This document shows positions 21,736-50,935 of a DNA stretch of 64,000 bases, piece by piece. Each line of letters begins with the position of its first letter. Position 1 is the stretch's first letter. This DNA is from a virus. Location of the stretch: positions 1-64,000 of the IMG/VR virus record IMGVR_UViG_3300012078_000001; one strand, written 5' to 3'. Below the pieces are notes generated by a model, which did not search any database, was not told the origin of the DNA, and saw only the letters and a list, made by a program, of their open reading frames with translations. The position numbers and the translations under genes were made by a program.

Positions 21736-21755
21736 TAGGGATTTTTCGCCCTTTC

Positions 21756-21797: not shown

Positions 21798-21871
21798 TAT
21801 GGTAAACTATAAATATAGTTAAGAGATTAATATGTAAAGGAGGAAATATTAAAGGAATATTTTATCCTATT

Positions 21872-26285: not shown

Positions 26286-26422
26286 TTAAGACTAAGGGGA
26301 GAAAAACAATAAACAAAAAGAGAGGGACAGAATGCTCAATTTTATTGCAATTATTCTAATTATATTGGCGTGTGCAAAATATCTTGGGTGGTTCTAAGTC
26401 CTAGATATTGGAGGGTAATATT

Positions 26423-28342
26423 TTGAAAATAAATTATTCGTACACACCAGATTTTATAGACTTCTTTAAGGGATTACAAAGTATTTCTTATGGTAAAGAA
26501 TTAGCTAATCTTGATGGAATTGGAAAACAACTTGATATAGCTGAATTTTCAAGACAGTTTTTTGGCAAAGTTGGTGATAATGGTACAACTGCTGATATTA
26601 GCATTGATGCAAATTCAAATGTGGATGATGTTAGTATAATTGCCTATGAAGCAGAAATAGCTAAACCAATAGGCAAGCTTAACGCTTATTATTTCTTATA
26701 TACAACTGCAAAAGAATTATACGGCGAAAATACTGCAAGAGAAATTATTTGTGGTCAGTTTTCTAAAGATTATTATATAAATGATTTCTTTGCTTTCAAT
26801 AAGCCTTATTGTTTCAATTTTAGTTGTGTTGATGTTATGTTTAGCGGCTTACCTTTTGTACAGAAGATTAAATCTAATCCACCAAAACATTTAAGTTCCT
26901 TTATGGGACAAATGATACAGTTTATAACATATGCGTCAAACAGTGTGGCTGGTGCTGTTGGTCTTGCTGACCTAATAATTTGTGCATCATTTTATGTAGA
27001 GAAAATGTTAAAAGAAAGCAAAGGCGTTCCCAAAGCGTACCTCTGGAAAAGTATTAAGCAAGAATTTCAAAGCTTTATCTATAGCGTCAACCAACCTTTT
27101 AGGGGTGGCAATCAATCTGCATTTACAAATATAAGTGTTTACGATGATTACTTTCTGGACAGTCTGTGTGAACAATATTATATGCCAGATGGAAGTCAAC
27201 CTAATAAAGCATTAATCAAAAAACTGCAAATTCTATTCCTTGATCTTATGAATGAAACACTGGCTCAAACCCCTGCAACTTTCCCTGTAACTACTGCTTG
27301 CTTTAGTGTTACTGATAATCGCAAAGTTCGCGACAAGAAATTTCTAAAGATGATCATGAAGAAAAACATCAAATTTGGATTTATCAATCTTTATGCAGGG
27401 AAAACAAGCACACTTTCTTCATGTTGTCGTTTGCGGTCTGAAAGCGACAATGAGTATTTTAATGCTTTTGGTAGTGGTGGTACTAAGATTGGCTCGTTAG
27501 GTGTTGTAACGCTTAATCTTCCGCGATTAGCTGTTAGTGCAGATGGTGATATTGATACATTTCTACAATCACTATCGCATTATACTTCATTAGCTGCAAA
27601 AATAAACCATGCAAAGCGAACATTAATTAGTGAACGAATTGCAAATGGTAACTTACCACTCTACACATTAGGATTCATGGATATTAACAAACAGTATAGC
27701 ACCTGCGGTTTGGTTGGTATTAATGAAGCATGTGAAATAATGGGTATGCCACTAATTCGTAATGATGGGGCAATTAATAAAGATGGCGTAGAAATGGTTA
27801 AACGTATTTTGGAAATTGTCAATGGTACTAATAAATATTATCAAAACAAATTTAAAACACCTCACAATTGCGAACAAACACCTTCTGAAAACTCAGCGAT
27901 TAAGTTGGCACAAGCAGATAAATTGCTAGGATTTCAACAAAGATTTGACTTATATAGTAATCAGTTTATTCCTCTTACTACTCAGGCTGCAATGATGGAC
28001 AGGCTAAAGTTACAAGGGAAGTTTGACCAATATATGACTGGTGGTGCAATCTGTCATATTAATATTGCTGACGAACCTAACGAAAATCATATTCCCTTTA
28101 TGATGAAAGTTTTCCAAAAAGCTGTTGAATATGGTGTGATCTACTGCGCTTACAACTACAATATGCAGCGTTGTAGCGAGGGACATATTAGTGTTGGAAA
28201 GCGTGATATGTGTCCTCTTTGTGGAAAGGAAATTCAAGAAAATTTTACAAGAGTTGTTGGTTTTTTAGTTAATGTTAAAAACTGGCACAAGGTAAGGCGT
28301 GATCAGGATTATCCTAATCGTCAGTTCTATACTGGAGGTTAA
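26423..28342 (+). CDS. nrdD: anaerobic ribonucleoside-triphosphate reductase
   Basis: About 640 aa; C-terminal Zn site CSEGH...CPLCG and glycyl-radical region RVVGFL. Start set to TTG 26423, behind GGAGGG; the track start 26408 overlaps the RBS. Confidence 0.9.
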   Translation: MKINYSYTPDFIDFFKGLQSISYGKELANLDGIGKQLDIAEFSRQFFGKVGDNGTTADISIDANSNVDDVSIIAYEAEIAKPIGKLNAYYFLYTTAKELYGENTAREIICGQFSKDYYINDFFAFNKPYCFNFSCVDVMFSGLPFVQKIKSNPPKHLSSFMGQMIQFITYASNSVAGAVGLADLIICASFYVEKMLKESKGVPKAYLWKSIKQEFQSFIYSVNQPFRGGNQSAFTNISVYDDYFLDSLCEQYYMPDGSQPNKALIKKLQILFLDLMNETLAQTPATFPVTTACFSVTDNRKVRDKKFLKMIMKKNIKFGFINLYAGKTSTLSSCCRLRSESDNEYFNAFGSGGTKIGSLGVVTLNLPRLAVSADGDIDTFLQSLSHYTSLAAKINHAKRTLISERIANGNLPLYTLGFMDINKQYSTCGLVGINEACEIMGMPLIRNDGAINKDGVEMVKRILEIVNGTNKYYQNKFKTPHNCEQTPSENSAIKLAQADKLLGFQQRFDLYSNQFIPLTTQAAMMDRLKLQGKFDQYMTGGAICHINIADEPNENHIPFMMKVFQKAVEYGVIYCAYNYNMQRCSEGHISVGKRDMCPLCGKEIQENFTRVVGFLVNVKNWHKVRRDQDYPNRQFYTGG

Positions 28343-32936: not shown

Positions 32937-33680
32937 TTGGCAAAACAATATTCAAAACAGCAAATACATATTGATAATAAATATGATTGGACTGTTAAAC
33001 AGTTATATGATTCAACAACAAGTGATAGGTTTTATGGTCAGCTTGATCATCGCCAACTAGAAGCGTATGCATGTCTTATAGGTAAACAATATAATATAAT
33101 TATATTTGACGAAAAGGCAGGCTGCGGTAAAACAACTCTTGCATTCCTTGCAGGACTTAATATGCTTAGAACAGGTAAAGTTGCTAAAATTATATATATA
33201 AGAATACCAGACGAACGTGCTTTAAGATTAGGTTATGTTCCTGGTGAACTTAATGAAAAAGAAGCAATATTTATGTTTCCTGCATATGACGCACTCTTGG
33301 TTAATGGGTTACAGCCTTATGCTGTAGATACCTTAAAATCAAAAGGGTTAATTGAGTTCTGTACTGACACTACAATGCGTGGGCGTAACTTAGAAAACGC
33401 TTATGTTATTATAGATGAGCCACAAAATGCAGACCTAGAAACACTCAAATTACTACTTACACGCCTACATGATAACTGTAAGTGTGTCTTGTCTGGGCAT
33501 TCTGGACAAGTGGACAGTAAGTTACCCAAATATGGCATACAAGGGTATAATGCGTTTAAAGTATATCAGGCACATTTATTACAAAAACCTTGGGCTATCA
33601 AGTGTGTCTTACCTATTAATTACAGAGGTAAAGTGTCTCGATGGGCTGACGAAGTTGACGAAACAGTAAAGTTCCTATAA
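32937..33680 (+). CDS. phoH: PhoH-family ATPase
   Basis: Walker A DEKAGCGKTTLA, Walker B VIIDEPQN. Confidence 0.85.
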   Translation: MAKQYSKQQIHIDNKYDWTVKQLYDSTTSDRFYGQLDHRQLEAYACLIGKQYNIIIFDEKAGCGKTTLAFLAGLNMLRTGKVAKIIYIRIPDERALRLGYVPGELNEKEAIFMFPAYDALLVNGLQPYAVDTLKSKGLIEFCTDTTMRGRNLENAYVIIDEPQNADLETLKLLLTRLHDNCKCVLSGHSGQVDSKLPKYGIQGYNAFKVYQAHLLQKPWAIKCVLPINYRGKVSRWADEVDETVKFL

Positions 33681-33737
33681 AAACAAAAACAACCCCTCCA
33701 ACCTCAATTAAGAGAAAGGAGGGGTTGTTTTTGTTTT
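33681..33737. terminator. bidirectional terminator between phoH and the accessory arm
   Basis: AAACAAAAACAACCCCTCC / GGAGGGGTTGTTTTTGTTTT long stem. Confidence 0.75.
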
Positions 33738-34720
33738 TATGCCGCCAATTGTTTGATAACTTTATACGTTTTATCAAGTAAATCATGACCTATTACAATT
33801 CTTTCAAAATGTAATTCTTTAGTTCTTATAGTTGGTTTTTTAACTGTTACTACATGGTCAGCGAAGTCAGCAACAGCATTTATAACGCCCCATGTATTAT
33901 TACGATGATTTGCAAGGTTATCTACCTTCAATCGTTCCCATACTTGGTAACGCTGTAGCTCAATATTCTTTTTAGCTTGGTCTGCCTTGTCTGAATCAGG
34001 AATAGGTAGAATTGTTTCAACTATCTTTTGAATTTGATCATCATTAACTTTAATACCAGCTAATACCTCTGCTTCTTTCTGTAGGGCAGTTTTATAGCTG
34101 TTAGAAATTGACAAGATGCGTTTTGCTTCGTTAATCTTCTCTTGAATATCGCCAGTGTGTCTTATTTTTACCGCACGAACTGCGGTATTGAGAGCAAAGT
34201 TAAGTGTATTCATACAAACAACTCTAATGGGCGTAAGTAATACTCTAGCACTTGAACTCCCATCGTGAGCGTTCATCATGACAATGTATTGAGCAGTATC
34301 ATCACCTAATAGTTCATAATTAGGTAACTTTGCGGTCATCCAGACCTTTTTACCTTTTTGCAAACTACCTGCTGTTTCGTAAACTAGTCCATCTCCTAGT
34401 AGAGCGTCCATAAAGCTAAAGCATTCATGATTTTGAATTGGTTCATATCTACCACGAACAATACCTAGAATAGATGCGTCTGATTGACGAACTACTGCAC
34501 TATAATCTTCAATCACTTGTGGTCTTGGTTCTAGTTTTCCATTTTCGACATAGCCATGATTATATACATACATATTTTGTAATTTAACTATCCAATCAAG
34601 ACCTGCCACAACTAAGGCTTTATCTGATGTTGGGGCTTCTGAAACCTCAGTACCCAGACCATGCCAAGGTGTTTGTCCGAAGTAAAACATGTTTTCAAGT
34701 TCGTGCGCCATTATTGACAT
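33737..34720 (-). CDS. DUF932 / phage-plasmid-like protein (TIGR03299-type)
   Basis: N-terminal HELENMFYFGQTPWHGLGTEV...AGLDW.V signature; 327 aa. Confidence 0.7.
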   Translation of the reverse strand: MSIMAHELENMFYFGQTPWHGLGTEVSEAPTSDKALVVAGLDWIVKLQNMYVYNHGYVENGKLEPRPQVIEDYSAVVRQSDASILGIVRGRYEPIQNHECFSFMDALLGDGLVYETAGSLQKGKKVWMTAKLPNYELLGDDTAQYIVMMNAHDGSSSARVLLTPIRVVCMNTLNFALNTAVRAVKIRHTGDIQEKINEAKRILSISNSYKTALQKEAEVLAGIKVNDDQIQKIVETILPIPDSDKADQAKKNIELQRYQVWERLKVDNLANHRNNTWGVINAVADFADHVVTVKKPTIRTKELHFERIVIGHDLLDKTYKVIKQLAA

Positions 34721-34800
34721 ACCTCCCTAATAATACTACTATCACCTAATTATAACATTCATATATAATGTGGGTCAAACGTGTTTTTAATAAAAATATT

Positions 34801-34829
34801 AAGGGAGAAGGACTGACATCCTCTCCCTT
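34801..34829 (-). terminator. terminator after the DUF262 gene
   Basis: AAGGGAGA(A)GGA / TCCTCTCCCTT stem. Confidence 0.55.
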
Positions 34830-34842
34830 AAAAGTGCGTATT

Positions 34843-36222
34843 CTATTCAAATTCGACTTCTGCGTCTGGGTCAATCACTGCTGTTCCCTCAGTATTTTGT
34901 TCTGTTTGTTGGAACATGTCAGTGCCTAATATTTCCTCAGTTTTGATTGCTTCTGTTTTAATTTCCTGAGTTACTTCTGGGACTACTGTGTCAGCAACTT
35001 CATCTATCGTAATTTCTTCGTAAGTAACTTCCCAGGGGGTAGAAGGGTAGTTGAAAAATGAGAAGTATTCTTTGATTTGTTCTAGGCGAATTTTGACATT
35101 GGTACTCTGTGCAACACCAGCAGCGCAAGCATTCTTATAAGCCTGACCTCTGTTTTTAAACCAATCAATGATATTATCAGCAGTGCGAGCAGGGTCAACC
35201 ACTGGATTAAGAACAGTAAACAACATTGGAATATGCGTTGTGCGATAAATTTTCTTGCGATCTTTTTCAGCAAGTGGAATATTACCCAGATAATTTGTAA
35301 TTGCTATTAATTTTTCAATCGTATTAACATGTATATCTGAGTGGATACCAGTGTCGCGCAACCACTTTGCATATGAGCCTATATTGTCGATACTTAATTC
35401 AGTTTCATCATTAAGTATCATCATAGTTGCTAGAATAACTTGATGCGAAACGAAATGCGTACGCTCTCTTGCAGTCCATGCAGCTAACTCAGACCAGAAC
35501 TTCATCTTGGCAACTTGATCAACAAATTCCATTACCTCTGTTCCAATTTCTGCACGAATTTTCTCGAATTTTGTTAGTTGAGTACCATTATTAAGACGAA
35601 TAAATATATCAGTAATAATATTTGGGTCTTGGTCACGACAAATTTGAAAGTCAATGCTGTAGCTTAGAATTTCATCTTGAAGATTAGGGTGAAGTTCGCT
35701 GAACAGTTTACCAGCAATTTCACAACTAAATACAGCAGGTGTTTTCTTGTCTAGGCGAAAACCATCATTGAGGAAATTTATGATTGTAGTTAAACGCTGT
35801 TTACCATCTAAGATATGTAGAACATCGTTGCGGTCTTTGTCCCAGGCAAATACTTGGGGAATAGGAAAATTAACAATAAGTGAATTGATAAATAGTGACA
35901 TTTGGAATGAATTCCAAACTTCGCCGCGCTGAATCGCAAGATCAAAATTAAGTTCTCCTGCATCTGATTTGGTTTTTACTTTCCTAATAGTTAAGTTTTG
36001 GTTATTTCTGTTCATAGCTTTTTTATGAGCCATTGCTTCTACAAAATCAGGCACTTCTTCAACGAAACCAGTTGCGAGTTCCTCTGCTTCTGTATTTTCA
36101 ATACCTACAGTTAGTTCTTGATCAGGGTCAATAATAAGGGTAGCTTCGCGACTTTTGATTACCTCGTTTGCTTTCTTGTTGATCATAGTAACTTTGTTGT
36201 TGTTCTTTTTAGCCATTGACAA
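34843..36222 (-). CDS. DUF262 (ParB-like nuclease fold) protein without a recognisable DUF1524/HNH half
   Basis: IQRGEVW ... LDGKQRLTTI motifs; 459 aa; acidic tail. Confidence 0.75.
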   Translation of the reverse strand: MSMAKKNNNKVTMINKKANEVIKSREATLIIDPDQELTVGIENTEAEELATGFVEEVPDFVEAMAHKKAMNRNNQNLTIRKVKTKSDAGELNFDLAIQRGEVWNSFQMSLFINSLIVNFPIPQVFAWDKDRNDVLHILDGKQRLTTIINFLNDGFRLDKKTPAVFSCEIAGKLFSELHPNLQDEILSYSIDFQICRDQDPNIITDIFIRLNNGTQLTKFEKIRAEIGTEVMEFVDQVAKMKFWSELAAWTARERTHFVSHQVILATMMILNDETELSIDNIGSYAKWLRDTGIHSDIHVNTIEKLIAITNYLGNIPLAEKDRKKIYRTTHIPMLFTVLNPVVDPARTADNIIDWFKNRGQAYKNACAAGVAQSTNVKIRLEQIKEYFSFFNYPSTPWEVTYEEITIDEVADTVVPEVTQEIKTEAIKTEEILGTDMFQQTEQNTEGTAVIDPDAEVEFE

Positions 36223-36304
36223 TCAACTCTCCTTTTAGCTATTCGCCACTCAATTTAGATAATCCGCATGAAAATTATAACATATGGATTTCGTTATATC
36301 AATA

Positions 36305-36315
36305 CCCCGAAGGGG
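36305..36315 (+). repeat. C-GNA-G mini-hairpin CCCCGAAGGGG
   Basis: Upstream of the DUF262 unit; followed by AAAATA. Confidence 0.6.
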
Positions 36316-36380
36316 AAAATAAGCTTTTACTCTCCCCTTTGGTAAAGTTGTTTTTTTGATATTTTTATATATGAGCATTA

Positions 36381-36782
36381 TCACTCCATTTCTTGATTTT
36401 GAACGTAGGCTATAAGTTCATCAATAGCGTTACTACCTGCACCTATGAAATAACCTCTACCCCAACCTTGCCAGTTAGGGTTAATCCTACGCATTATTGG
36501 TGTCGTGCAGCCTTTAATATATCTAGCAATTTGCATAGGAGAGAGGGTAACGTCAGATTGAACTACAAGGTGTACATGATCTTTCTTTCTAATGCCACCT
36601 GCTTTTAGCTCTGTGTCTCCAACATTACCCTCTAAGATAGTAATAGGATATTTAGTTATTGCTTGGCGAATGTATCCTATAACTTCATCAGGAATATTCT
36701 CACGCCTATACTTTTTAGTGATTACAAAATGGTAAACTATACAACATACTGAATGATTATGGTGGATAGGTTTAATCTGCAT
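36381..36782 (-). CDS. tnpA: IS200/IS605-family Y1 (HUH) transposase homologue, orphan
   Basis: Aligns end to end with IS608-type TnpA by eye: YHFVITKKYRR, KDHVHLVV (HUH), C-terminal AYVQNQ catalytic Tyr; 133 aa. Confidence 0.8.
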   Translation of the reverse strand: MQIKPIHHNHSVCCIVYHFVITKKYRRENIPDEVIGYIRQAITKYPITILEGNVGDTELKAGGIRKKDHVHLVVQSDVTLSPMQIARYIKGCTTPIMRRINPNWQGWGRGYFIGAGSNAIDELIAYVQNQEME

Positions 36783-36792
36783 AGTTTCCTCC

Positions 36793-38538
36793 TTAATATA
36801 GATAGCCTATTTCTTTTGCAATCTTGGCTTGTGCCTGCATATGTGCTAGAGTGTTATCCTTAGTATCATATAGTAAATGTGCTAATTCATGTGATATTGT
36901 GTCACTTGCCCTTAGTATAAAGCGTAAATCCTCTAGGCTGATATGTTCGCTTGTCCAGTTTTTTACTGTAAAGTCACCTAATTTTAGACTTTTGCGATCT
37001 AGGTATATTTTACCTTGTGTACATACACCTTCAATAATATTATCTGGGGATTGTAACTCCTTATCATCGAACTGTGAAACTATCTTCATGGTAATGTTGC
37101 AAATATTAAATGTCTCGCCAATCTTATAATATTCCTCAATTCGACGAAGTAGGAATAATGCCCTTTTTTCTTTTAAGGTTCTTGTTCCAATATCAGTAAA
37201 TTTGTGTTGTTTCTTAATATTGTCAACAAGATAAGATATATGCGGCACACTGTATTCATTAAACACTCGTTCGTATAACTCATTGACAGCAATTATACCT
37301 TTAAATCCATAGTATTCCATATTAGTGATAGTCTCTTTACTAGCATTTAATTCGTTTGGACTTACCCAGAATAACTTATTAGATTTAGCAATAGATACAA
37401 TACTGTTTTTTCTTGCTCTAGGATTAATAGACTTTACTGCACTTAATACAGTGTTTTGGTTATAGTTTTCAGTAGGAGGGAAGGAGTGTTCAGTTTCATA
37501 GCTTTGTTCGTACATGTCTGTGTTGTAATTAAATATGTCTAGTTTTGGTTTAAGGACTTCGTCTTTAATTTTATTCTCTTTTGGGTTAATATATTCATCT
37601 TCATCATTGACATGAACTTTAAACATATCATCGTCAATTTCTAGTAAATCTTCGTATTCTTTTACATTAAGAATACTTGCAATGGGATGGGAAAATTCAT
37701 CAATTAAGTTATTGTCAGCAAGTTTAATAAATTCGCGGTATAATTTCTTAGTATCTTTTTCAAGCTGGTCTTTAAAGTTGCGATATTTTCCATCATTAAT
37801 AATCGCTTTGCGATCTGGCGCTTTTAAATTACCTGCATTTTGTTTTAATATGATATTGCCTGAGACACCTGTTAGCCACTCTTTGCATACTTCTCTGTTT
37901 TCATAGTAAACCATGCAATCATATCCCCATTCCAGAGGGGTTAAATATGCTGTATATAATTTATTATCAAAGGTTTTAATGAAATCTGTTGTTCCATCTA
38001 TATTTGATAAATCTTTCTTAAAAACGAGAGTATTATTAACATAACAATTCATAGGCAGTAATGACGCAGAGTATTTTAAGAAGTTTGTTATTTCTTCGAT
38101 ATTTTCCTCAATTTTTTCACCCTGTATAGTTACCTCAAAGCCTTGTGAATAGTCAGTTTCTTCTTTGTATGAATATGTTAAATTACGTTCTTGTAACATT
38201 TTAGCTACATTAAGATTAACTGACCATTTATGTGAGCGAACTTTGATAATGTCTGCTACTGTATAGACTGAGGTAAATCCTTCGCCAAACCCTTCGTTTG
38301 TACTGTCCCAAGCTGACCTATCTATAGTAAATAGTTCGTCTGGGTCTTTACAACCAACCCCATCATCAATAATTGTTAGGTAATTATCTTTAATGAAGCA
38401 ATGGATTGTCTTGGCTTTTGCACGTTGGCAGTTCTGGAGAAGTTCACTAACAACTGAGGTTATAGAATTATAGACTACACCTTGACGAATCTTGGCGAGC
38501 CTACTAACTACATCTGAGGTAATTTGTCTTGTATTCAT
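36793..38538 (-). CDS. GHKL (Bergerat-fold) ATPase fused to a C-terminal HExxH zincin-like motif
   Basis: ELLQNCQRA (N-box), DDGVGC, GFGEGFTS; SHELAHL at 36877-36894; the stop overlaps the RBS of tnpA. Confidence 0.7.
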   Translation of the reverse strand: MNTRQITSDVVSRLAKIRQGVVYNSITSVVSELLQNCQRAKAKTIHCFIKDNYLTIIDDGVGCKDPDELFTIDRSAWDSTNEGFGEGFTSVYTVADIIKVRSHKWSVNLNVAKMLQERNLTYSYKEETDYSQGFEVTIQGEKIEENIEEITNFLKYSASLLPMNCYVNNTLVFKKDLSNIDGTTDFIKTFDNKLYTAYLTPLEWGYDCMVYYENREVCKEWLTGVSGNIILKQNAGNLKAPDRKAIINDGKYRNFKDQLEKDTKKLYREFIKLADNNLIDEFSHPIASILNVKEYEDLLEIDDDMFKVHVNDEDEYINPKENKIKDEVLKPKLDIFNYNTDMYEQSYETEHSFPPTENYNQNTVLSAVKSINPRARKNSIVSIAKSNKLFWVSPNELNASKETITNMEYYGFKGIIAVNELYERVFNEYSVPHISYLVDNIKKQHKFTDIGTRTLKEKRALFLLRRIEEYYKIGETFNICNITMKIVSQFDDKELQSPDNIIEGVCTQGKIYLDRKSLKLGDFTVKNWTSEHISLEDLRFILRASDTISHELAHLLYDTKDNTLAHMQAQAKIAKEIGYLY

Positions 38539-38876
38539 TCTCTATCACTCCATCTAAATTGTTTGAAACTACACTCATCTACACGCCAGGGTATTTTATT
38601 AATTAGATAATTGAGCATTTCTACATGAGACATACCATCCCAGAAATCAACTGATTGGTCGAACGTAGACATATTTTTACGATAGAAAAAATCATAGACC
38701 TTGACAATTGATCGTGTAGGATTGTAGATGTATATTTCTAATCCGCAATAATCATATATTTGATTGAGTGTCAGAAGATAACCTGCATTAGAATTTTCTT
38801 CATCAAGCTTAATATAAAGTGTATCTGTAGTATCAGAATTATTATTTTTTAAAATACAATCTCTTGTAATTGGCAT
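38535..38876 (-). CDS. hypothetical protein (113 aa), first gene of the GHKL operon
   Basis: ATGA overlap with the GHKL gene; AAGGAGGAG RBS. Confidence 0.55.
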   Translation of the reverse strand: MPITRDCILKNNNSDTTDTLYIKLDEENSNAGYLLTLNQIYDYCGLEIYIYNPTRSIVKVYDFFYRKNMSTFDQSVDFWDGMSHVEMLNYLINKIPWRVDECSFKQFRWSDRE

Positions 38877-38960
38877 AAATTACTCCTCCTTGAATCTAGC
38901 TGCGCAGTAAAACTACAATTATTATATAGTAATTTTACCACGCATGTCAAAGATTAGTAA

Positions 38961-39089
38961 TTACATAGTTAGCGCAAAAGATAACACTTTTACAAATTTC
39001 TCTTTAGGTGCATTTAATGGGAGAATAAAAGAAACTCCCTTATATGTGTAAGTGATAGTGCTGTTCTTAATATCAAGTTTTACTCTCAT
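38961..39089 (-). CDS. 42-aa hypothetical protein
   Basis: AAAGGAG RBS 7 nt before ATG 39089; MRVKLDIKNSTITYTYKGVSFILPLNAPKEKF... Confidence 0.4.
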   Translation of the reverse strand: MRVKLDIKNSTITYTYKGVSFILPLNAPKEKFVKVLSFALTM

Positions 39090-39140
39090 ATTCGCCACTC
39101 CTTTTAATACAGTGGTAAGTGTTTGCCAGACACTTTCACC

Positions 39141-39599
39141 TTAGAATGAAATTTCTTCTTCGTCTGGTGTTTCGCTTGGTAATTCTAATCTATTCTGTGA
39201 AGTGTTCTGATTAGGACTGTCCATCACTACACAACTAGTAGCATTAATAAATAAATTAATACCATTCTTATATTCGCCTGTAGCTCTATCTGTAGATTCC
39301 CAAATGCGAGGACGAATATTATCTGTTGTTATAGCAACTAATCTACCTTTACTGAGTATTTTACCTACTCCTGACAACTTACCCCAACATGACACATCAA
39401 AGTCAACATCACCGCCAAAATCTTGAGATATACGAATAGGAAAGTTGGTTACATATTTAATGTTGGTGAGGTTAGGTCGATTAGTGTCTGTGACTTTTAC
39501 AGTTTTATTATCTTTGTTGACACCTACTTCCATTATAGTAGGATTAGTTAGTAAACGTCCTATTAGTGTTATTTGAATAAGGTTTTTAGCTTTTGACAT
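39141..39599 (-). CDS. ssb: single-stranded DNA-binding protein (OB fold, acidic tip)
   Basis: NLIQITLIGRLLTNP, SCWGKLSGVGKILSKGRLV, C-terminal PDEEEISF. Start moved to ATG 39599, behind AAGGAGG. Confidence 0.75.
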   Translation of the reverse strand: MSKAKNLIQITLIGRLLTNPTIMEVGVNKDNKTVKVTDTNRPNLTNIKYVTNFPIRISQDFGGDVDFDVSCWGKLSGVGKILSKGRLVAITTDNIRPRIWESTDRATGEYKNGINLFINATSCVVMDSPNQNTSQNRLELPSETPDEEEISF

Positions 39600-39654
39600 T
39601 GGATTACTCCTCCTTGTCCTCATAGGGACTAAAGTTATTATTAATTAATAAACA

Positions 39655-39665
39655 CTCCGCAGGAG
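39655..39665 (+). repeat. C-GNA-G mini-hairpin CTCCGCAGGAG
   Basis: 56 nt upstream of the ssb start; a second hairpin CTCCGC/GCGGAG lies at 39713-39730. Confidence 0.6.
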
Positions 39666-39742
39666 AATATATTTTAATAAGTATTGAATCTGCAAAATAC
39701 AATTTAATTTGACTCCGCAAGACTGCGGAGCGACAATAAAAC

Positions 39743-39776
39743 AAAAAAGGAGGGACTAGTTTAATAACTAGTCCCT
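39743..39776 (-). terminator. cassette terminator T1 (AGGGACTAGTT stem)
   Basis: 39751-39761 pairs with 39766-39776; T-run on the minus strand (39743-39749). Confidence 0.75.
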
Positions 39777-39836
39777 TATAATTAGTAGAATTTTATTTGC
39801 CCTCCTTATCTACCTTGTAGAATGCTATCCTAGTGC

Positions 39837-40034
39837 CTAATTCAGAGTCAAGATAATAGAGAGAAGCGTTAATACTTTTCTCCATGTACTCAATAGTTGT
39901 ATGGTTACATATGCCCCAAAACACCACCCATTAGCGATATGTCGAGGGTTTACTTTATTCCCAACTATATAACCTCTCCATTCCCCTTTGGCACGTATAG
40001 TAGCCTTTACCTGTGCTTTTGTGACTTTAATCAT
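39837..40034 (-). CDS. hypothetical small protein (possible frame problem)
   Basis: 65-aa ORF. The -1 frame stays open to TAA 39793-39795, next to T1. Confidence 0.4.
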   Translation of the reverse strand: MIKVTKAQVKATIRAKGEWRGYIVGNKVNPRHIANGWCFGAYVTIQLLSTWRKVLTLLSIILTLN

Positions 40035-40061
40035 TTATGTAATTCCCCCTAATTTTAATAT

Positions 40062-40098
40062 TAAAATAAAAAGAGACTAGTTTAAACACTAGTCTCTT
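40062..40098 (-). terminator. cassette terminator T2 (AAGAGACTAGT stem)
   Basis: 40071-40081 pairs with 40088-40098; overlaps the stop of the ORF at 40089. Confidence 0.8.
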
Positions 40099-40355
40099 TG
40101 TTGGGTAAGGTTTTTGTTGTTTTGTTTTATATCATACCTTACTAAGCCCTTTTTATAGTTATAATCTGTAACGCCGAAATCTAAAGCATCAACAACTGCG
40201 ACACTTATTCTATAGCCATTCGCTTTTTCTGTTGACCTTGCTCGTTCAATTGCTTCTGTCATAGAGCAGCCTGCACAATTTTTTAACCAATTACCATCAA
40301 CTGTCGAATCACTGTTTACATTTCCAACTACTAATAACGAATACCTTTTGTTCAT
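40089..40355 (-). CDS. hypothetical protein (88 aa)
   Basis: AGGAGG RBS; the stop codon lies inside the terminator stem. Confidence 0.55.
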   Translation of the reverse strand: MNKRYSLLVVGNVNSDSTVDGNWLKNCAGCSMTEAIERARSTEKANGYRISVAVVDALDFGVTDYNYKKGLVRYDIKQNNKNLTQQRD

Positions 40356-40375
40356 TAATCATTCCTCCTATATAA

Positions 40376-41017
40376 TTAATATTTGACACTTATGATTCTT
40401 TCGCGCTCATAGCCTTTTAACTTTCCTTCGGCAGCATGGCAGCGGATTTTTATATGCTCGTCGGTCATTTCCATAACAGATATGACCGAATATTTCTCAT
40501 TGCAAATCTTTTTAAATTCGGCATCGACAGTGTCATAGGCTGCTTTCCTGGCAGCGGTACGAGGTCTATTAACGACATGATCTTCCATGCAGTTATAGCG
40601 AGCAATACCTTCGCTGTCGCGCCCTGCATGTACTCTGTAATCCTCAAAATCGTCTAATACTTCTAAATCTGTAAAGCTGCAATCTAAATTTTCGTTAATC
40701 CACCTTAGAACGCTGTTCTTTCCATATGAAACTCTTCTAGTTTCTTCAAAGTAAATATCAATATACTTTTCGCTTTTTCCACCATAAGTTGATATAATAT
40801 CAGCGTATATATGCAATCCCCAATCATTATCTGGATTGTCTCTCTGTTCTATTTTTGTCTGTAAATGCTGTTTAAGGCATCTTTTAATTTCAAGATATAT
40901 CTTTTTGCCTTTATCGTTGGTAAATACTGTTCGGCATCTATAGTTACCGATGTCGCTATAAGGATGTATTTCATAGCTCATTCCTGCACCTTCCATAAGT
41001 AAAACACGTTGTTTCAT
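40376..41017 (-). CDS. hypothetical protein (213 aa)
   Basis: Start moved to ATG 41017, behind AGGAGGG and 1 nt after the upstream stop. Confidence 0.55.
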   Translation of the reverse strand: MKQRVLLMEGAGMSYEIHPYSDIGNYRCRTVFTNDKGKKIYLEIKRCLKQHLQTKIEQRDNPDNDWGLHIYADIISTYGGKSEKYIDIYFEETRRVSYGKNSVLRWINENLDCSFTDLEVLDDFEDYRVHAGRDSEGIARYNCMEDHVVNRPRTAARKAAYDTVDAEFKKICNEKYSVISVMEMTDEHIKIRCHAAEGKLKGYERERIISVKY

Positions 41018-41944: not shown

Positions 41945-41977
41945 AAAAAAAAGAGACTAGCTCGTTACTAGTCTCTT
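41945..41977 (-). terminator. cassette terminator T4 (AAGAGACTAG stem)
   Basis: 41951-41960 pairs with 41968-41977; A9 run on the plus strand. Confidence 0.8.
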
Positions 41978-41991
41978 GATCATTTATATAG

Positions 41992-42366
41992 TTAAATAAT
42001 TTCTTTAATTTTTGCCCTTCGGATAAATTCAATTTCAGCAGCATTATGAGCGCAATCTGCCGATAAATTACGAATCGCTATTTTCTGGATTGTTTGTTCT
42101 TTCTCAACACTCTCAGCAAGTCGATATGATTTTTCACAAAGTTCAAGTATAGCTTGATCTGCTTCTTTAAGGTTACGAATTTCATTTTTAAGATCACGAA
42201 TATCTTCTTTAAGTTCAGTTTTCATGGAACTTATCTCGGTTTTAATGGAACTCATCTCAGTTTTAATGGAACTTATCTCAGTTTTCATATCTGATTTTAT
42301 AGAAGCTATATCTGATTCCATACTTACTAATTTTGTAAATATTTTATCTAACAGTTCTTCGCTCAT
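41992..42366 (-). CDS. coiled-coil paralogue A (7-aa repeat protein)
   Basis: MSEELLDKIFTKLVSMESDIASIKSDMKTEISSIKTEMSSIKTEISSMK...; 21-nt DNA repeats at 42212-42295. Confidence 0.55.
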   Translation of the reverse strand: MSEELLDKIFTKLVSMESDIASIKSDMKTEISSIKTEMSSIKTEISSMKTELKEDIRDLKNEIRNLKEADQAILELCEKSYRLAESVEKEQTIQKIAIRNLSADCAHNAAEIEFIRRAKIKEII

Positions 42367-42371
42367 ATGAA

Positions 42372-42749
42372 TCACTCCTCATTATTTATTATATCATAGT
42401 TTTGAATGGTTTGACTTGGCTCTTTAGGTTTTGAGTCAAGCATTATTATATTATTAACATTGATATAATTATTGATTCCTGACTTATTGTTTGCGTTCCA
42501 TGTTTTCTGTGAAAAATCACTTGATGTAACACACACTAAGCGTCCAATTGATAGGTTTTTAACAGCTACTTCTGCTAATTGATTCCACGCAGCACATTCA
42601 AATGATATAGTTTCTTTAGTACCATTTGTACTCCTGTTAGTCAGTATGCGAAAATTTGTCACCTGACTGTTTTTATTATTTCTAAAAGTTGGTTCATTAG
42701 CTACCCTTCCAATAACTGTAAGTTGTACCATTTGCATCCTTATTGACAT
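42372..42749 (-). CDS. SSB-like OB-fold protein lacking the acidic tip
   Basis: VQLTVIGRVANEPTFR, ECAAWNQLAEVAVKNLSIGRLV; start uncertain (ATG 42749 or 42731). Confidence 0.6.
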   Translation of the reverse strand: MSIRMQMVQLTVIGRVANEPTFRNNKNSQVTNFRILTNRSTNGTKETISFECAAWNQLAEVAVKNLSIGRLVCVTSSDFSQKTWNANNKSGINNYINVNNIIMLDSKPKEPSQTIQNYDIINNEE

Positions 42750-43412: not shown

Positions 43413-44408
43413 ATGGCAGAAATGAGATTTTTTAAAGCGAATGAAATCGATGATCAAATATTTTATCAAGTCCCTAAATCATTATTCAATAACCCTCGGT
43501 ATCAAGAAAATAAGGACTTGAAACGCAAAGCCTTAAGTCTTGAAGGTAAAATGGTTTATTCTATTTTAAGAGATAGGATGAATCTTTCACTAAAAAACGG
43601 ATGGATTAATGAAAATGATGAAGTTTTTCTGAAATTCAAGCGATCAGACTTAATGCAACTTCTTGAGTGTGGTTGGGAAAAAATAACGAAAGTCATGAAA
43701 GAACTTAACGATTATGAATTGATTTATGAAAAAAAATTAGGGCGTGGCATGACCAATGAAATTTACATTTGCCATGTTAAATTAAAAGAAAAAACACCTT
43801 CCAGCCCAGTAAATTCAACAGAAAACAATAGAACTTCGAAAATCGAAGAACAAGAACTTCGAAAATCGAAGAACAAGAACTTCGAAAATCGTAGTTCAAG
43901 AACTTCGAAAATCGAAGGCTATAGTAATACTGATATTAGTAATACTGATATTAGTAATACTGATATTAATAAAACAACAACAACAAAAGCTGCTGTTGTT
44001 GTTCCTTCGGCTACGCCTGTAGAGACGGACAAGCATAATAAAGTTATCGCCAAAGCAGAAGCTTGCGGCGTTAAAAAAACTACTGTCAAAAAACATATTA
44101 AACAAAAAGGATTATCCGCTGTTGCAGATCAAGTTACTAATTTAGAAAAAGCTATTGCCGAAGGTATTAAAAATAGAAAGCCAATATTAAGCCCTGGTGC
44201 ATGGTTACATACTGCATTACAAGAAGGATTTGTAGATACTAAGACTATTCGCGATCAAGAGAAAGCAATAGCGCAAGAGAAAGCTGCTGATATGCGGAAA
44301 GCTGCGGAGGAAATTTTATTAGCTGAAAGCGAACAATTCTTGCCTATTGATTATTCTACTAGCTTGTTTGCAATGAGAGCACCATTAGGTGTATTACAGG
44401 CTGTCTAG
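43413..44408 (+). CDS. repA: RepA_N-family plasmid replication initiator
   Basis: FFKANEIDDQIFYQVPKSLF..LSLEGKMVYSILRDRMNLSLKNGWINENDEVFLKF...ITKVMKELNDYELIYEKKLGRGMTNEIYI. Confidence 0.85.
   Translation: MAEMRFFKANEIDDQIFYQVPKSLFNNPRYQENKDLKRKALSLEGKMVYSILRDRMNLSLKNGWINENDEVFLKFKRSDLMQLLECGWEKITKVMKELNDYELIYEKKLGRGMTNEIYICHVKLKEKTPSSPVNSTENNRTSKIEEQELRKSKNKNFENRSSRTSKIEGYSNTDISNTDISNTDINKTTTTKAAVVVPSATPVETDKHNKVIAKAEACGVKKTTVKKHIKQKGLSAVADQVTNLEKAIAEGIKNRKPILSPGAWLHTALQEGFVDTKTIRDQEKAIAQEKAADMRKAAEEILLAESEQFLPIDYSTSLFAMRAPLGVLQAV
43830..43920 (+). repeat. four 23-nt direct repeats (iterons) inside repA
   Basis: AGAACTTCGAAAATCGAAGAACA x4. The period is not a multiple of 3, and each unit contains the CTTCGA..TCGAAG palindrome. 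Confidence 0.85.
43923..43967 (+). repeat. three 15-nt direct repeats inside repA
   Basis: AGTAATACTGATATT x3 (encodes SNTDI x3). Confidence 0.85.
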
Positions 44409-44536: not shown

Positions 44537-45187
44537 TTACTTGTCCAACGTATTAAAAGACTTGTATTGGCTGTTTGCTTGTTTATATTCTTCGTCTAAT
44601 TGCTTTGATAATTTGTAGAATGTATTTTTTTTCACGTCTGCTTTTTCCATAGCTTTAACTGCGGTAATGTAACCTTTCTTCCATTCCAGGTAGGCATTGC
44701 GTAGCTGTTCTGTGATCTTAGCTTTCGGTCTGCCGAAGTTTTGTTTCTTGGCTAGGGCTAAATCAATTCCTTCGCGCTGCCGTTGTAGTAATTTATTTCT
44801 TTCCTGTTCGGCAAGATAACTGAGTAAACTAAGAAATTGATCTTCCATGAGTTTACCAATGTCACCCATTGCTTTAAACTTCCGACTATCGAAAAGACTC
44901 TCTTGATCTAATATGACAATGTCAGCTTGTAGATCGCGAGTGATTTCTTTCCACTCCTTAATAATTCCCTCGTAGTTTCTCCCCAGCCGATCTAAGGAGT
45001 CGATATAGATTAAGTCACCTTCTCTAATGATACGCTTCATAGCTTGGTATTCTGGTCGATCAAAGTCTTTGCCGCTTTGTTTGTCTACAAAGATAAAGCG
45101 TTCTAGTATACCTAATTCTTTTAGTTTTTTAATTTGTCTTTCTGGATTTTGACTTCGATCTGAAACACGCACATACCCCATTTCCAT
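44537..45187 (-). CDS. small serine recombinase (resolvase/invertase family)
   Basis: MEMGYVRVSDRSQNPERQ catalytic-Ser motif; C-terminal HTH; 216 aa. Confidence 0.9.
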   Translation of the reverse strand: MEMGYVRVSDRSQNPERQIKKLKELGILERFIFVDKQSGKDFDRPEYQAMKRIIREGDLIYIDSLDRLGRNYEGIIKEWKEITRDLQADIVILDQESLFDSRKFKAMGDIGKLMEDQFLSLLSYLAEQERNKLLQRQREGIDLALAKKQNFGRPKAKITEQLRNAYLEWKKGYITAVKAMEKADVKKNTFYKLSKQLDEEYKQANSQYKSFNTLDK

Positions 45188-45353: not shown

Positions 45354-45384
45354 AAAAAATAGAGACTAGCAAGTGCTAGTCCCT
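45354..45384 (-). terminator. cassette terminator T5 (AGAGACTAGC stem, 1 mismatch)
   Basis: 45361-45370 pairs with 45375-45384; overlaps the stop of the ORF at 45376. Confidence 0.7.
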
Positions 45385-45635: not shown

Positions 45636-45902
45636 TTAATATAAGTTTTTGAAGATGTTCTTCTCGCCTTCTTCGATTTTGCGATATGTGTTCTCGCAAG
45701 CCTTAATCATAGCTTGATTTGCTTCTTTGAGGTTACGAATATCTTCTTTAGTAGCCATATTGGATTCGATAAAAGTAATTCGTGACTCCATAGAGTTAAT
45801 CTTTGAGTCCATAGAATTAATTCGTGAGTCCATAGAATTAATTTTTGATTCCATAGATATTAGCTTTTCAAATATTTTGGTTAACATTTCTTCTTGTTGC
45901 AT
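45636..45902 (-). CDS. coiled-coil paralogue B
   Basis: MQQEEMLTKIFEKLISMESKINSMDSRINSMDSKINSMESRI...; 21-nt repeats at 45771-45855. Confidence 0.55.
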   Translation of the reverse strand: MQQEEMLTKIFEKLISMESKINSMDSRINSMDSKINSMESRITFIESNMATKEDIRNLKEANQAMIKACENTYRKIEEGEKNIFKNLY

Positions 45903-45940
45903 TTGATGCACTCCTAGTTATTAATAATACTAGTTTCAAC

Positions 45941-45971
45941 ACAAGAGACTAGCATTATACTAGTCTCTTGT
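45941..45971 (-). terminator. cassette hairpin T6 (ACAAGAGACTAG stem, no T-run)
   Basis: 45941-45952 pairs with 45960-45971. Confidence 0.55.
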
Positions 45972-45980: not shown

Positions 45981-46331
45981 TTAAGCTGTCTCTCTTTTTT
46001 CTCTTTCGTCTTTAAGTAAATCGATTTCAACAGCATTTTGCGTACAATCCACTGTCAGTCTGCGTAACCATGCTGAATGAAGCTTTTGTTCTTTTTGTAT
46101 ATTCTCAACTTCTTGATATGTTTTCTCGCAAATCTTAATTATAGCTTGATCTGCTTCTTTAAGGTGGCGAACATCTTCTTTAAGATCGCGAATATCTTCT
46201 TTGGTAGCCATATTTTGTTTAATATCTTTAACTTCTGATTCCATAGAATTAATTCGTGATTCCATAGAGTTAATCTTTGATTCCATAGATACTAGCTTTT
46301 CAAATATTTTGGTTAGCATTTCTTCTTGCAC
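45981..46331 (-). CDS. coiled-coil paralogue C
   Basis: GTG 46331, 9 nt after AAGGAG; VQEEMLTKIFEKLVSMESKINSMESRINSMESEV...; the C-terminal half is similar to paralogue A. Confidence 0.55.
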   Translation of the reverse strand: MQEEMLTKIFEKLVSMESKINSMESRINSMESEVKDIKQNMATKEDIRDLKEDVRHLKEADQAIIKICEKTYQEVENIQKEQKLHSAWLRRLTVDCTQNAVEIDLLKDEREKRETA

Positions 46332-46370
46332 ATTGACCATCTCCTTAATATTAATTATACCATACACATC

Positions 46371-46670: not shown

Positions 46671-46937
46671 TCATTTTTGTAATTCCTTTTGTAGTTTTTC
46701 AGCAATCCAACTACGAACCATAGTTTGATATGGAATATCTTTTTTAGCTGCTATTTCTTTTAATGATTCAATTTGATTATTTCTTAGACGTATTGTGATA
46801 GGTCGTAAATTCTTTTGTAGAGCAGGGTCAAGTGTTACTTCTATTTCCTTAGTTTCGTCAATGAGTTCGACAGTATTAGCGGTAGACCAGAATTCTACTT
46901 CTTCTTCCAGGTTGTTAAATTTAATTTCTTTAGTCAC
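46671..46937 (-). CDS. brnA: BrnA-type (RHH/CopG-like) antitoxin
   Basis: C-terminal ITIRLRNNQIESLKEIAAKKDIPYQTMVRSWIAEKL; ATGA-type overlap with the toxin gene. Confidence 0.7.
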   Translation of the reverse strand: MTKEIKFNNLEEEVEFWSTANTVELIDETKEIEVTLDPALQKNLRPITIRLRNNQIESLKEIAAKKDIPYQTMVRSWIAEKLQKELQK

Positions 46938-47236
46938 TATATACCCCTCCTGTTTTTGTAGTAATATCGCTTTTCTTCTTGCTCCATTTCTCTAGCTGTG
47001 ATGATCGTAATTTCATTTATGTTCTCAATTTCATATACTACGACTAACAATCTTCCTTGATCAGTCTCACCATATGCTAAGTATCGTCGTTTATTGTTAG
47101 CGACAATTTTAGAGACTTTGTATACTGGATAATTCCAGAATACTTCCTCTGCTTCATACTTATCTACGTTGTGTTTCCAGTCAGCATGCCAGGATTTAAT
47201 AAAGTTGATTGTTTTGATTCGCAAGTAATGTACCAT
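46937..47236 (-). CDS. brnT: BrnT-type (DUF497) toxin
   Basis: W.ADWKHNVDKY.AEEVF...YGETDQGRLLVVVYE...ITIITAREMEQEEKRYY. Start moved to ATG 47236. Confidence 0.7.
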   Translation of the reverse strand: MVHYLRIKTINFIKSWHADWKHNVDKYEAEEVFWNYPVYKVSKIVANNKRRYLAYGETDQGRLLVVVYEIENINEITIITAREMEQEEKRYYYKNRRGI

Positions 47237-47304
47237 TTGATCACAACCTCTGCTATTATAGTTTATCATTTTGTATGTACAATGTAAATACATTAAAATA
47301 AACC

Positions 47305-47315
47305 CTGCGAAGCAG
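47305..47315 (+). repeat. C-GNA-G mini-hairpin CTGCGAAGCAG (contains GCGAAGC)
   Basis: About 70 nt upstream of brnT; no leftward gene lies upstream of it. Confidence 0.6.
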
Positions 47316-47376
47316 AAATATTTCAAGTTAAAAGTTAATAATTTATGAAAATAAAAATAAAAATTGACAAAACTTG

Positions 47377-49489: not shown

Positions 49490-50935
49490 ATGCCGCCAGA
49501 AGTAAGCGAAATTGAAATGATTGCTAAAGCCTATGAATTAGGCGAGAAGTCAATCATAGATTTTAGACGCTTATTCCTACCCTCTGATGATGATGTAGAA
49601 CCAGCTTGGTTTCACTACAAATGGGATAAAATTCTAAGGGAAGGTAATAAGCATTATGCTATTGAAGCCTTTCGTGAGAGTGCAAAGTCTCAGATAGTAA
49701 TTAGAGGGTTTTCACTCTATCGACTTGTATATCCAGTTTTACATCAATCATATATCGTTCTTTTAAAGGCGAATCAAACAGAAGCAAGTAAGAAACTAAA
49801 AGAAGTATCAACTGAATATCAAACTAACCCTTGGCTCTGCTCAAACCTTGTTAAAATTAACGAGGACAATGGCAGAGCTTTTGATTTGGACGTTAAGGAT
49901 AAGCATGGAAAAGTCATTAACATACGAATCGAAGCCTATGGTAAAGGTGCAAGTATTCGCGGTATTTCATATTTTAACAAGCGTCCTCATATCATCATTG
50001 CTGACGACTTACAAGACTTAAAAGATAGTCAATCTGAGACAATTCAAAAGGACGATTGGAACTGGTTTACATCTGACGTAATATTCCTTGGCAAGAGAAC
50101 ACGCATATTTATGATTGGTAACAATCTAGGGTCTGCCTGTTTAATAGAAAGGGTAGCAGATGGTGCAAAAAGCTTAAAATTTGAGTTTGATCGAATACCT
50201 ATATTAGATGCAACAGGTAAGTCTAATTGGGAAACATTTTGGTCTACTGAAAGTATTTTTGAAGAACGCGAAGGCTACAGAAAAGAAGGACTTATATCTA
50301 ACTGGACAAGAGAAAAAATGTGTATTGCAGTTGCTCCTGAGAAGCAAATATTCAAGAAAGAGTATTTCAAGTATTATAATCTAAAGGATTTAGATTTAAC
50401 CAAGCTATCTGTTTACACTATTGTTGACTTGGCTATAAGTCAATCTGATAAAGCTGATTTTACTTCAATTTGTACAATTGGGGTAAATACTGAAAATCAC
50501 TGGTTTATACTTGATATTGACTATGAAAGATATAACCCTAGCGAACAAGTTGATCATGTATTTAATGCTGTTCGCAAATGGAAACCTATATGTGTTGGCG
50601 TAGAAAAGGTTGCTTACCAAGCAAGTTTTGAGCATTATCTTTATAAAGAAATGCCTATGCGTAATGTGTTCTTTCGTATACAACCACTCGAACATGCTAA
50701 AAAGAAGGAAGTTCGTATTGAGACTATGCAGCCACGCTTTGTAGCTGGCACTGTTTGGTTTCCTTATGAAGCTATGTTCTTAGCTGAGTTAGAGCAAGAG
50801 TTGTTAACTTTCCCTAAATGCTTACATGATGATTTAATTGATAGTTTAGCATATATGGAACAAATAGCATTGCCGCCTGTTGGTGGGTGGGGTAGTTCAA
50901 GCGATATAGATATTCCATATGCAGGGGCTATGTAG
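49490..50935 (+). CDS. terL: terminase large subunit
   Basis: 481 aa; Walker-A-like AIEAFRESAKSQ; IIADDLQD Walker B; C-terminal nuclease-like DLAIS.../HDDLIDS acidic motifs. Confidence 0.85.
   Translation: MPPEVSEIEMIAKAYELGEKSIIDFRRLFLPSDDDVEPAWFHYKWDKILREGNKHYAIEAFRESAKSQIVIRGFSLYRLVYPVLHQSYIVLLKANQTEASKKLKEVSTEYQTNPWLCSNLVKINEDNGRAFDLDVKDKHGKVINIRIEAYGKGASIRGISYFNKRPHIIIADDLQDLKDSQSETIQKDDWNWFTSDVIFLGKRTRIFMIGNNLGSACLIERVADGAKSLKFEFDRIPILDATGKSNWETFWSTESIFEEREGYRKEGLISNWTREKMCIAVAPEKQIFKKEYFKYYNLKDLDLTKLSVYTIVDLAISQSDKADFTSICTIGVNTENHWFILDIDYERYNPSEQVDHVFNAVRKWKPICVGVEKVAYQASFEHYLYKEMPMRNVFFRIQPLEHAKKKEVRIETMQPRFVAGTVWFPYEAMFLAELEQELLTFPKCLHDDLIDSLAYMEQIALPPVGGWGSSSDIDIPYAGAM

Follow-up and report, generated by a model that had tools for sequence, protein, structure and literature searches.

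The stretch of DNA studied here (64,000 nt, positions 1 to 64,000 of the IMG/VR virus record IMGVR_UViG_3300012078_000001; hereafter the window) is a nearly complete genome of a tailed double-stranded DNA phage of about 65 kb, and the contig from which it comes measures 65,209 nt. On the minus strand, three consecutive open reading frames (ORFs) are situated between positions 38876 and 36381 (Table 1): ORF1 codes for a small lineage-specific protein, ORF2 for a protein with an ATPase part of the GHKL type and a C-terminal domain carrying an HExxH motif, and ORF3 for a Y1 HUH endonuclease of the kind found in insertion sequences (ISs) of the IS200 type. An original prediction had regarded the three as an operon with one common function. 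The arrangement that it described was recovered in the sequence: the three reading frames themselves, the ATGA at 38535-38538 in which the stop codon of ORF1 overlaps the start codon of ORF2, the 10-nt gap between the TAA stop of ORF2 and the ATG of ORF3 (GGAGGAAACT) with an AAGGAGG ribosome-binding site (RBS) across the stop, the promoter upstream of ORF1, and, further upstream on the same strand, a 42-aa ORF and a paralogue of the gene for single-stranded DNA-binding protein (SSB). The quoted motifs are likewise present (ELLQNCQRA, DDGVGC, GFGEGFTS and SHELAHL in ORF2; HVH and AYVQNQ in ORF3), except that SHELAHL had been placed at 36877-36894 and in fact spans 36874-36894. All three ORFs can be taken as real genes, because homologues exist elsewhere and the proportion of nonsynonymous differences (pN) lies well below that of synonymous ones (pS).

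The putative sigma-70-type promoter upstream of ORF1 was the top site in a scan of 7 kb (33500-40500). The next promoter on the minus strand, which heads the separate unit of a ParB/GmrSD_N-like gene, sets the downstream limit of the ORF1-ORF2-ORF3 unit. Between ORF3 and this limit, folding of the 170 nt 3' of ORF3 revealed a stem-loop that lacks a T-tract and was hence not called by the terminator scan; no counterpart was seen when the flanks of the relatives were folded. It probably marks the end of the transcription unit. Because of the promoter at 38950-38921 and the stem-loop situated before the next promoter, a single transcript of ORF1, ORF2 and ORF3, starting from one strong promoter, is probable in this phage.

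Concerning ORF2, searches with the single sequence reached only sub-threshold GHKL matches (SACS, E 1.4e-4; HATPase_c, E 4.9e-4 with 21 vs. 26.4 bits; NCBIfam sacsin ATP-binding domain, E 1.8e-6), and no match was obtained with phmmer against the sequences of the PDB, with tblastn against 50,697 phage records, or against the PHROGs at E<=0.01. A word-indexed search yielded 12 relatives. An exhaustive profile search retrieved 2155 representatives of 50%-identity clusters at E<=1e-3, 889 of them at E<=1e-10 and 216 at E<=1e-30, and most of the 150 family matches listed follow the profile from end to end. Within this family, HATPase_c_3 is matched by 43 of 72 diverse members (best E 1.6e-7), and the residues of the N-box (E32/N36), the G1 box (D58xGxG62) and the G2 box (G83FGxGF88) are invariant or nearly so; strict patterns of the N-box and of G1 were found in 119 and 126, respectively, of 146 representatives. 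Furthermore, R215 and P241-D242-R243 of the middle domain are invariant across the 72 members, and the stretch between residues 313 and 377, which is predicted to be a disordered linker, is the most gapped and length-variable part of the family alignment. In a Foldseek comparison, the AlphaFold (AF2) model of ORF2 (predicted local distance difference test, pLDDT, 80.5) matched Hsp90, TRAP1 and HtpG at E~1e-14, with a root-mean-square deviation of 4.5-5 Å over 350-390 columns for fragments comprising the N-terminal (N) and middle (M) domains of TRAP1. Its viral neighbours, at E~1e-10, are giant-virus Hsp90 as the top match, many rIIA proteins, and ATPase subunits of type II topoisomerases. By its motifs and predicted fold, ORF2 is thus a genuine member of the GHKL ATPase superfamily, as had been proposed. 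No match to Pfam HSP90 was obtained for ORF2 or for the 72 family members, such that it does not belong to the Hsp90 family proper. It stands by itself and belongs to a large family of phage proteins that has neither a name nor an annotation; in kind, it is a GHKL protein of the rIIA/Hsp90-like type with an undescribed C-terminal domain. In the searchable literature, a phage protein of the GHKL-HExxH build was not found to be described.

The C-terminal domain of ORF2 did not find a structural neighbour in the PDB by Foldseek (best E 0.42, TM-score <0.2), and a profile of its 204 aa retrieved only a spurious bZIP match there. In the domain model, a beta-sheet is followed by a long helix, the end of which carries the HExxH-x6-D motif. 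Its H, E, H and D do not vary among 27 members of the family that bear the HExxH, and HELAH together with D561 may provide the ligands of a metal. Among known peptidase families, sub-threshold matches were obtained to Peptidase_M78 (best E 8e-4; 4 of 10 members in one sample and 7 of 72 in another), to SprT-like proteins (4 of 10 members, E 0.014) and to WLM (3 of 10 members), and five profile matches in the PDB, none of them significant (E 0.27-1.3), are all zincin active-site helices. Of the HExxH zincin in the original prediction, the motif is therefore upheld by its conservation in the family, whereas the zincin fold was not recovered by Foldseek and can only be suggested from the sequence.

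ORF3 matches Y1_Tnp (PF01797) with an E of 1.6e-13 and 51.3 bits against a cutoff of 23, and NCBIfam transpos_IS200 (NF033573) with 58.5 bits against 55. It aligns over its full length with the structures 2f4f and 2ec2, and its HUH motif and its Y...Q line up with those of the solved IS200-family TnpA proteins, including IS608 TnpA and Sulfolobus TnpA. The HUH motif is invariant in all 19 aligned proteins of the subfamily and the outgroup, no variation is seen at Y126, and little or none at Q130. A word-indexed search with ORF3 alone found 2 proteins. A profile search extended these to a subfamily of 17 proteins, which score at least 139 bits vs. at most 80 bits for generic TnpA proteins and share the N-terminal signature IKPIHHNHSVC; a scan of IMG/VR for orthologues found none. 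Four orthologues, in the phage loci designated L012, L011, L001 and L002, are 40-66% identical to ORF3. For ORF3, pN amounts to 0.12-0.40 and pS to 0.64-0.95; since synonymous sites are saturated, numerical dN/dS could mostly not be computed, and pN lying well below pS was used qualitatively. ORF3 is, to judge from its residues, a full-length IS200-type Y1 HUH protein under purifying selection with its catalytic residues intact. No description of solo Y1 genes in phages was found in the searchable literature.

Solo Y1 genes of this subfamily are also situated in integrative islands of Negativicutes (L050, 10001-13681; L055, 9432-13560; L057 and L058, 6001-9780). There, a recurring order is found, consisting of Y1, a gene of about 500 aa on the opposite strand, a helix-turn-helix gene, RadC and, within 4-6 kb, a tyrosine integrase, and in three of the four islands a gene of 138 aa on the opposite strand precedes Y1. 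In the phage locus L001, RadC lies 1.5 kb from Y1; altogether, RadC is found near Y1 in 5 loci, but not generally in the clade of the window.

ORF1 did not match Pfam (above threshold), the PHROGs, PADLOC or NCBIfam. Its only homologues occur in L001 (44% identity) and L011 (40%), such that it is present in three of the five members of the window clade, which comprises the window and the four relatives L001, L002, L011 and L012 with an ORF2 identity of at least 46%. It is absent from L002 and L012, where the small genes upstream of or abutting ORF2 are unrelated to it according to hhalign, and the idea of a fast-evolving obligate partner of ORF2 was discarded on this result. ORF1 is a small lineage-specific protein that is translationally coupled to ORF2 in this phage.

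That ORF3 is simply an IS200-group insertion (tnpA only), active or recently inactivated, which happened to land downstream of ORF2, is extremely improbable, even though the protein passes the Pfam and NCBIfam cutoffs given above and true IS200/IS605 copies are found in phage genomes. Elements of the IS200 group carry tnpA only, and the absence of tnpB from the region, which the original prediction had used as an argument, is therefore invalid as such and would also suit a plain insertion. Against such an insertion stand the surroundings and the history of the gene. Only 10 nt separate ORF3 from the stop of ORF2, and the C-terminus of ORF2 is conserved to the final residue in relatives without an adjacent Y1. 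The orthologues are collinear and, in L012, L001 and L002, tightly packed between coding sequences (in L012 with flanks of 45 nt, holding a terminator, and 13 nt; in L002 with overlaps to both neighbours), which leaves no room for IS ends there or in the window. A fold comparison of the flanks showed no hairpin common to the Y1 loci, DNA homology of Y1 between unrelated contexts covers the coding sequence and about 16 nt only, and no IS-associated RNA of Rfam is present. The copy number is low, with one copy in the window and three in 2 of 185,579 species genomes, namely one in Sporomusa malonica and two in one Veillonellaceae metagenome-assembled genome, each of the latter inside a larger related element. 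Moreover, the order ORF2 > Y1 > ParB-like gene is collinear in the window, L012 and L001, and the identities of Y1 to its orthologues (66/50/51/40%) parallel those of ORF2 (72/57/58/46%). Because of the missing room for ends, the unshared flanks, the low copy number, the collinear inheritance and the purifying selection, it is well supported that ORF3 is no part of an IS, and that it derives from an IS200-type transposase, has lost the transposon ends and is inherited vertically; on this point, the original view of a recruited enzyme holds. For ORF2, it appears rather unlikely that the protein is a phage chaperone of the Hsp90 type, serving the folding or assembly of phage proteins, with an HExxH of structural or otherwise non-catalytic role. 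Bona fide Hsp90 proteins are indeed its top structural matches over the N and M domains, the giant-virus Hsp90 heads its viral matches, and the persistence of the C-terminal domain in members that have lost the HExxH, together with the lack of a detected zincin fold, would agree with such a role; in sequence, however, ORF2 shows no Hsp90 membership beyond sub-threshold generic GHKL and sacsin matches, its C-terminal domain is unrelated to the Hsp90 dimerization domain, most of the family has H, E, H and D unchanged, and the gene is situated among accessory and conflict-type genes, outside the morphogenesis module.

Concerning a common function of the three genes, the linkage of Y1 and ORF2 is confined to the window clade and varies within it. 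In L012, Y1 adjoins ORF2 but lies behind an intrinsic terminator (ACCGC-TGGC-GCGGT followed by T7; L012 2884-2928); one gene intervenes in L011 and seven genes (2.3 kb) in L001, and in L002 the order is reversed, with Y1 4.5 kb upstream of ORF2. Profile scans of 45 other loci of the ORF2 family, 24 of which extend 3 kb or more beyond the gene on one side (306 kb of flank in total), found neither Y1 nor ORF1, and within 6-10 kb no relative of ORF2 or ORF1 was found in six other neighbourhoods of the Y1 subfamily (a Sporomusa chromosome and islands with an integrase). Across the clades of ORF2, none of its neighbours is conserved, no partner of ORF2 or Y1 was found to be conserved beyond lineage-level synteny, and adjacent co-occurrence across divergent genomes, by which a conserved multi-gene system would be recognized, was not observed. 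The pattern is that of a shuffled accessory region, in which collinear descent is broken by gene insertions and deletions, and outside the clade the families are independent. ORF1, ORF2 and ORF3 are thus probably three neighbouring, independent accessory genes and not parts of one machine. Several points weigh against this reading or against the peptidase role that goes with it. All five clade genomes with Y1 have ORF2 within 5 kb, as immediate neighbours in the window and in L012, and in five related genomes a linkage due to common descent cannot be told from one due to function; many contigs of the ORF2 family are short, such that a Y1 situated further off than a few kb would go unnoticed, and because the profile for Y1 derives from clade members, a very divergent Y1 might not be recovered by it. 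A peptidase role of the C-terminal domain is suggested by the motif, Foldseek having shown no zincin, and the HExxH, kept in 114 of 146 full-length representatives, is absent from 32 (22%), with the domain persisting. The close linkage and the parallel divergence of Y1 and ORF2 would also suit a clade-restricted module for conflict or establishment directed at single-stranded DNA (ssDNA), in which the GHKL protein is the sensor or motor, adducts of protein and DNA (e.g., a Y1-DNA phosphotyrosyl) are processed by the HExxH domain and Y1 is the effector; so would the one promoter, the ATGA overlap and the 10-nt gap with the RBS over the stop in the window, the SSB genes nearby, and the weak SprT-like match, which would fit adduct processing. 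Such a module is nevertheless improbable in view of the changing spacing and order, the terminator in L012, the 45 loci with ORF2 and without Y1, the six neighbourhoods with Y1 and without ORF2, the missing conservation of ORF1, a SprT-like match that is no better than that to M78, both being sub-threshold, and the failure of Foldseek to detect a zincin fold. The original prediction of a single functional module had itself named co-occurrence of the three genes in other genomes as its touchstone; they were not found together outside the window clade, which largely tells against it. In PADLOC-DB v2, none of the three matched at E<=1, as the prediction had expected, and the only match belongs to the downstream ParB/GmrSD_N-like gene (NsnA). 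Little probability is also given to Y1 having been recruited in this phage clade as an ssDNA-directed effector of establishment or counter-defence that cooperates with ORF2, the metallopeptidase-like domain of which could resolve the Y1-DNA adduct. If this were true, Y1 might cut hairpin-forming ssDNA of the host or of a defence system, and in integrative islands the solo Y1 subfamily, there next to RadC, would have a comparable function.

With ORF1, ORF2 and ORF3 as independent genes, ORF2 probably acts as a dimeric GHKL clamp, the N-terminal domains of which would close upon ATP binding. Early in infection, this cycle would bring the C-terminal domain, which is probably a small metallopeptidase, into place on a protein of the phage or of its host; the proposal follows the general logic that has been proposed for counter-defence proteins of the rIIA type. 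Independently of ORF2, ORF3 would most likely cut, and possibly rejoin, ssDNA at a hairpin via a 5'-phosphotyrosyl intermediate. Hairpin-guided cleavage and joining of ssDNA of this kind is established for the TnpA proteins of IS608 and ISDra2.

Five stem-loops with the stem GACTAG-loop-CTAGTC occur in the window. All of them are intergenic within the minus-strand accessory block, have T-runs on the minus strand and resemble terminators. They are situated 3-9.5 kb from ORF3, and none of them is found in 56 related loci, the Y1-bearing ones included. As they do not adjoin ORF3, are missing from every Y1-bearing relative and have the look of terminators, they were rejected as substrates of Y1. 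They are similar to the repeated promoter/terminator stem-loops at gene-shuffling boundaries of other phages.

Table 1. Positions of the genes and other features in the window
Feature	Position	Strand	Remarks
ORF1	38535..38876	-	113 aa, lineage-specific
ORF2	36793..38538	-	581 aa, Hsp90/rIIA-like GHKL ATPase with C-terminal HExxH-motif domain
GHKL (Bergerat) ATPase and Hsp90-type middle domain, ORF2 residues 1-312	37603..38538	-	predicted from motifs and Foldseek
Disordered linker, ORF2 residues 313-377	37408..37602	-	pLDDT <50
C-terminal alpha/beta domain, ORF2 residues 378-581	36796..37407	-	204 residues; domain model pLDDT 88.8
HExxH-x6-D motif of ORF2 (HELAH, H550-H554, and D561)	36856..36891	-	candidate metal site
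ORF3	36381..36782	-	133 aa, solo IS200-type Y1 HUH endonuclease, outside any IS
HUH motif of ORF3 (H69-V-H71)	36570..36578	-	
Catalytic Tyr126 and Gln130 of ORF3 (YVQNQ)	36393..36407	-	
Putative sigma-70-type promoter upstream of ORF1, TTGACA-N18-TATAAT	38921..38950	-	12/12 consensus matches
Next putative promoter, TTGATA-N17-TATAAT with TG	36274..36302	-	11/12 matches
Stem-loop downstream of ORF3 (AAGGGGAGAGTAA...TTATTTTCCCCTT)	36310..36340	-	
42/45-aa ORF upstream of ORF1	38961-39098	-	
SSB paralogue upstream of ORF1	39141-39623	-	phrog_44, E=2e-4; BLAST clustering with PF00436 SSBs of relatives
DUF932/TIGR03299 "phage/plasmid-like protein"	33737-34720	-	
ParB/GmrSD_N-like gene	34843-36222	-	PADLOC NsnA, 4.5e-30; phrog_2598
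True SSB	42372-42749	-	accessory block
DnaD-like helicase loader	43413-44408		PHROG match
Serine resolvase/invertase	44537-45187		PF00239, E 6.4e-23
BrnT-like ribonuclease toxin homologue	46937-47326		PF04365, E 6.5e-11
GACTAG-loop-CTAGTC stem-loops (five)	39754-39773, 40075-40094, 41955-41973, 45364-45381, 45947-45965		0.01 expected by chance
DNA polymerase	15055-18087		PHROG match
Primase-helicase	19687-21735		PHROG match
NrdD	26408-28342		PHROG match
Large terminase	49490-50935		PHROG match
Portal	50953-53016		PHROG match
Major head protein	54650-55771		PHROG match

The three genes lie inside a block of small accessory genes on the minus strand (33.7-47.3 kb), which, to judge from its position and its promoters, is probably expressed early. 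The two genes downstream of the ORF3 stem-loop, i.e., the ParB/GmrSD_N-like gene and the DUF932 gene, are each preceded by a strong promoter of their own with 11/12 matches (36302-36274 and 34778-34749). Together with the two SSBs, they constitute a set that is reminiscent of the leading regions of conjugative elements, and in the relatives L001 and L002 the same region also carries ArdC, RadC, DUF3846 and Tad2-like genes. In megablast searches of collections of phages and plasmids, no isolate was seen to share DNA with the region, and scans for Rfam families and tRNAs were empty. The host is probably a bacterium of the Negativicutes.

Repeats are found at several places of the window. The gene of the DnaD-like loader contains 3.8 copies of a 23-nt unit (AGAACTTCGAAAATCGAAGAACA) at 43830-43917 and, directly after these, 3.4 copies of a 15-nt unit at 43922-43972; these iteron-like repeats suggest that the replication origin of the phage is situated inside its initiator gene, as in lambda. 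Three paralogous genes for small coiled-coil proteins (41992-42375, 45636-45911 and 45981-46367) have 100-118-nt repeats in common (repeat families D2, D3 and D13) and show an internal periodicity of 21 nt. Just downstream of the primase-helicase gene, an intergenic direct repeat of 70 nt (21737-21806 and 21853-21922) contains a TTACCC...GGGTAA hairpin in each copy. Finally, an ORF of 2431 aa at 4292-11587 comprises three tandem copies of about 213 nt (5340-5979) that are 70-84% identical; its product, in which domains would be repeated, is probably a giant tail or fibre protein.

Among known systems, ORF2 is most readily compared with the rIIA-type proteins of phages such as T4, which combine an N-terminal GHKL ATPase with a variable C-terminal domain (Iyer et al. 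2021, PMC7824862). Like these, it is encoded by a phage among accessory and conflict genes, joins an N-terminal GHKL ATPase to a different C-terminal module, and has many rIIA proteins among its viral structural neighbours. Despite this similarity, there is no sequence relationship (neither PHROGs nor tblastn gave a match), the TM-scores reach only 0.3-0.36, the C-terminal domain is of the HExxH-x6-D kind, and neither an rIIB-like nor any other conserved partner exists. With Hsp90, HtpG and TRAP1, ORF2 shares the N-terminal Bergerat ATPase, the fold of the middle domain and the conserved ATP-binding motifs, whereas the identity amounts to about 10-13%, the C-terminal domain is a different one, the disordered linker is long and the protein is phage-borne. 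As in minimal zincins (Peptidase_M78 of IrrE/ImmA, SprT-like proteins, WLM), its HExxH lies on a helix after a small beta-sheet and is followed, after a turn, by a further conserved acidic or His residue; the x6-D spacing, however, matches none of them exactly, no family threshold is reached, and some family members lack the motif.

ORF3 resembles the TnpA proteins of IS200/IS605 elements (2f4f, 2ec2, 2a6m, 2vhg) in its full-length homology, the HUH motif, the catalytic Tyr and the Gln, and differs from them in the lack of subterminal hairpin ends, its single or low copy number, its vertical inheritance in a phage clade, its occurrence in integrative islands, and its membership in a distinct subfamily. 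Domesticated Y1 transposases have been described as TnpA-REP/RAYT, which are chromosomal and flanked by REP/BIME repeats (PMC3333891, PMC8266576). ORF3 has in common with them that it is a Y1 HUH enzyme off the transposon lifestyle, of low copy number and under purifying selection, whereas no family of repeats flanks it and it resides on phages and integrative islands. A RAYT-like arrangement was discarded because of the flanks, the copy number and the synteny, the only repeated hairpin family not flanking the gene.

A novel three-gene conflict system is thus not upheld, which saves follow-up effort on it. The ORF2 family adds to the rIIA-like GHKL proteins, a group that is poorly understood and thought to act in phage counter-defence. 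The subfamily of ORF3 consists of single Y1 genes that lack transposon ends, are subject to purifying selection and reside on phages and in integrative islands of Negativicutes, and it would constitute, beside RAYT/REP, a second route of Y1 domestication, here on mobile elements.

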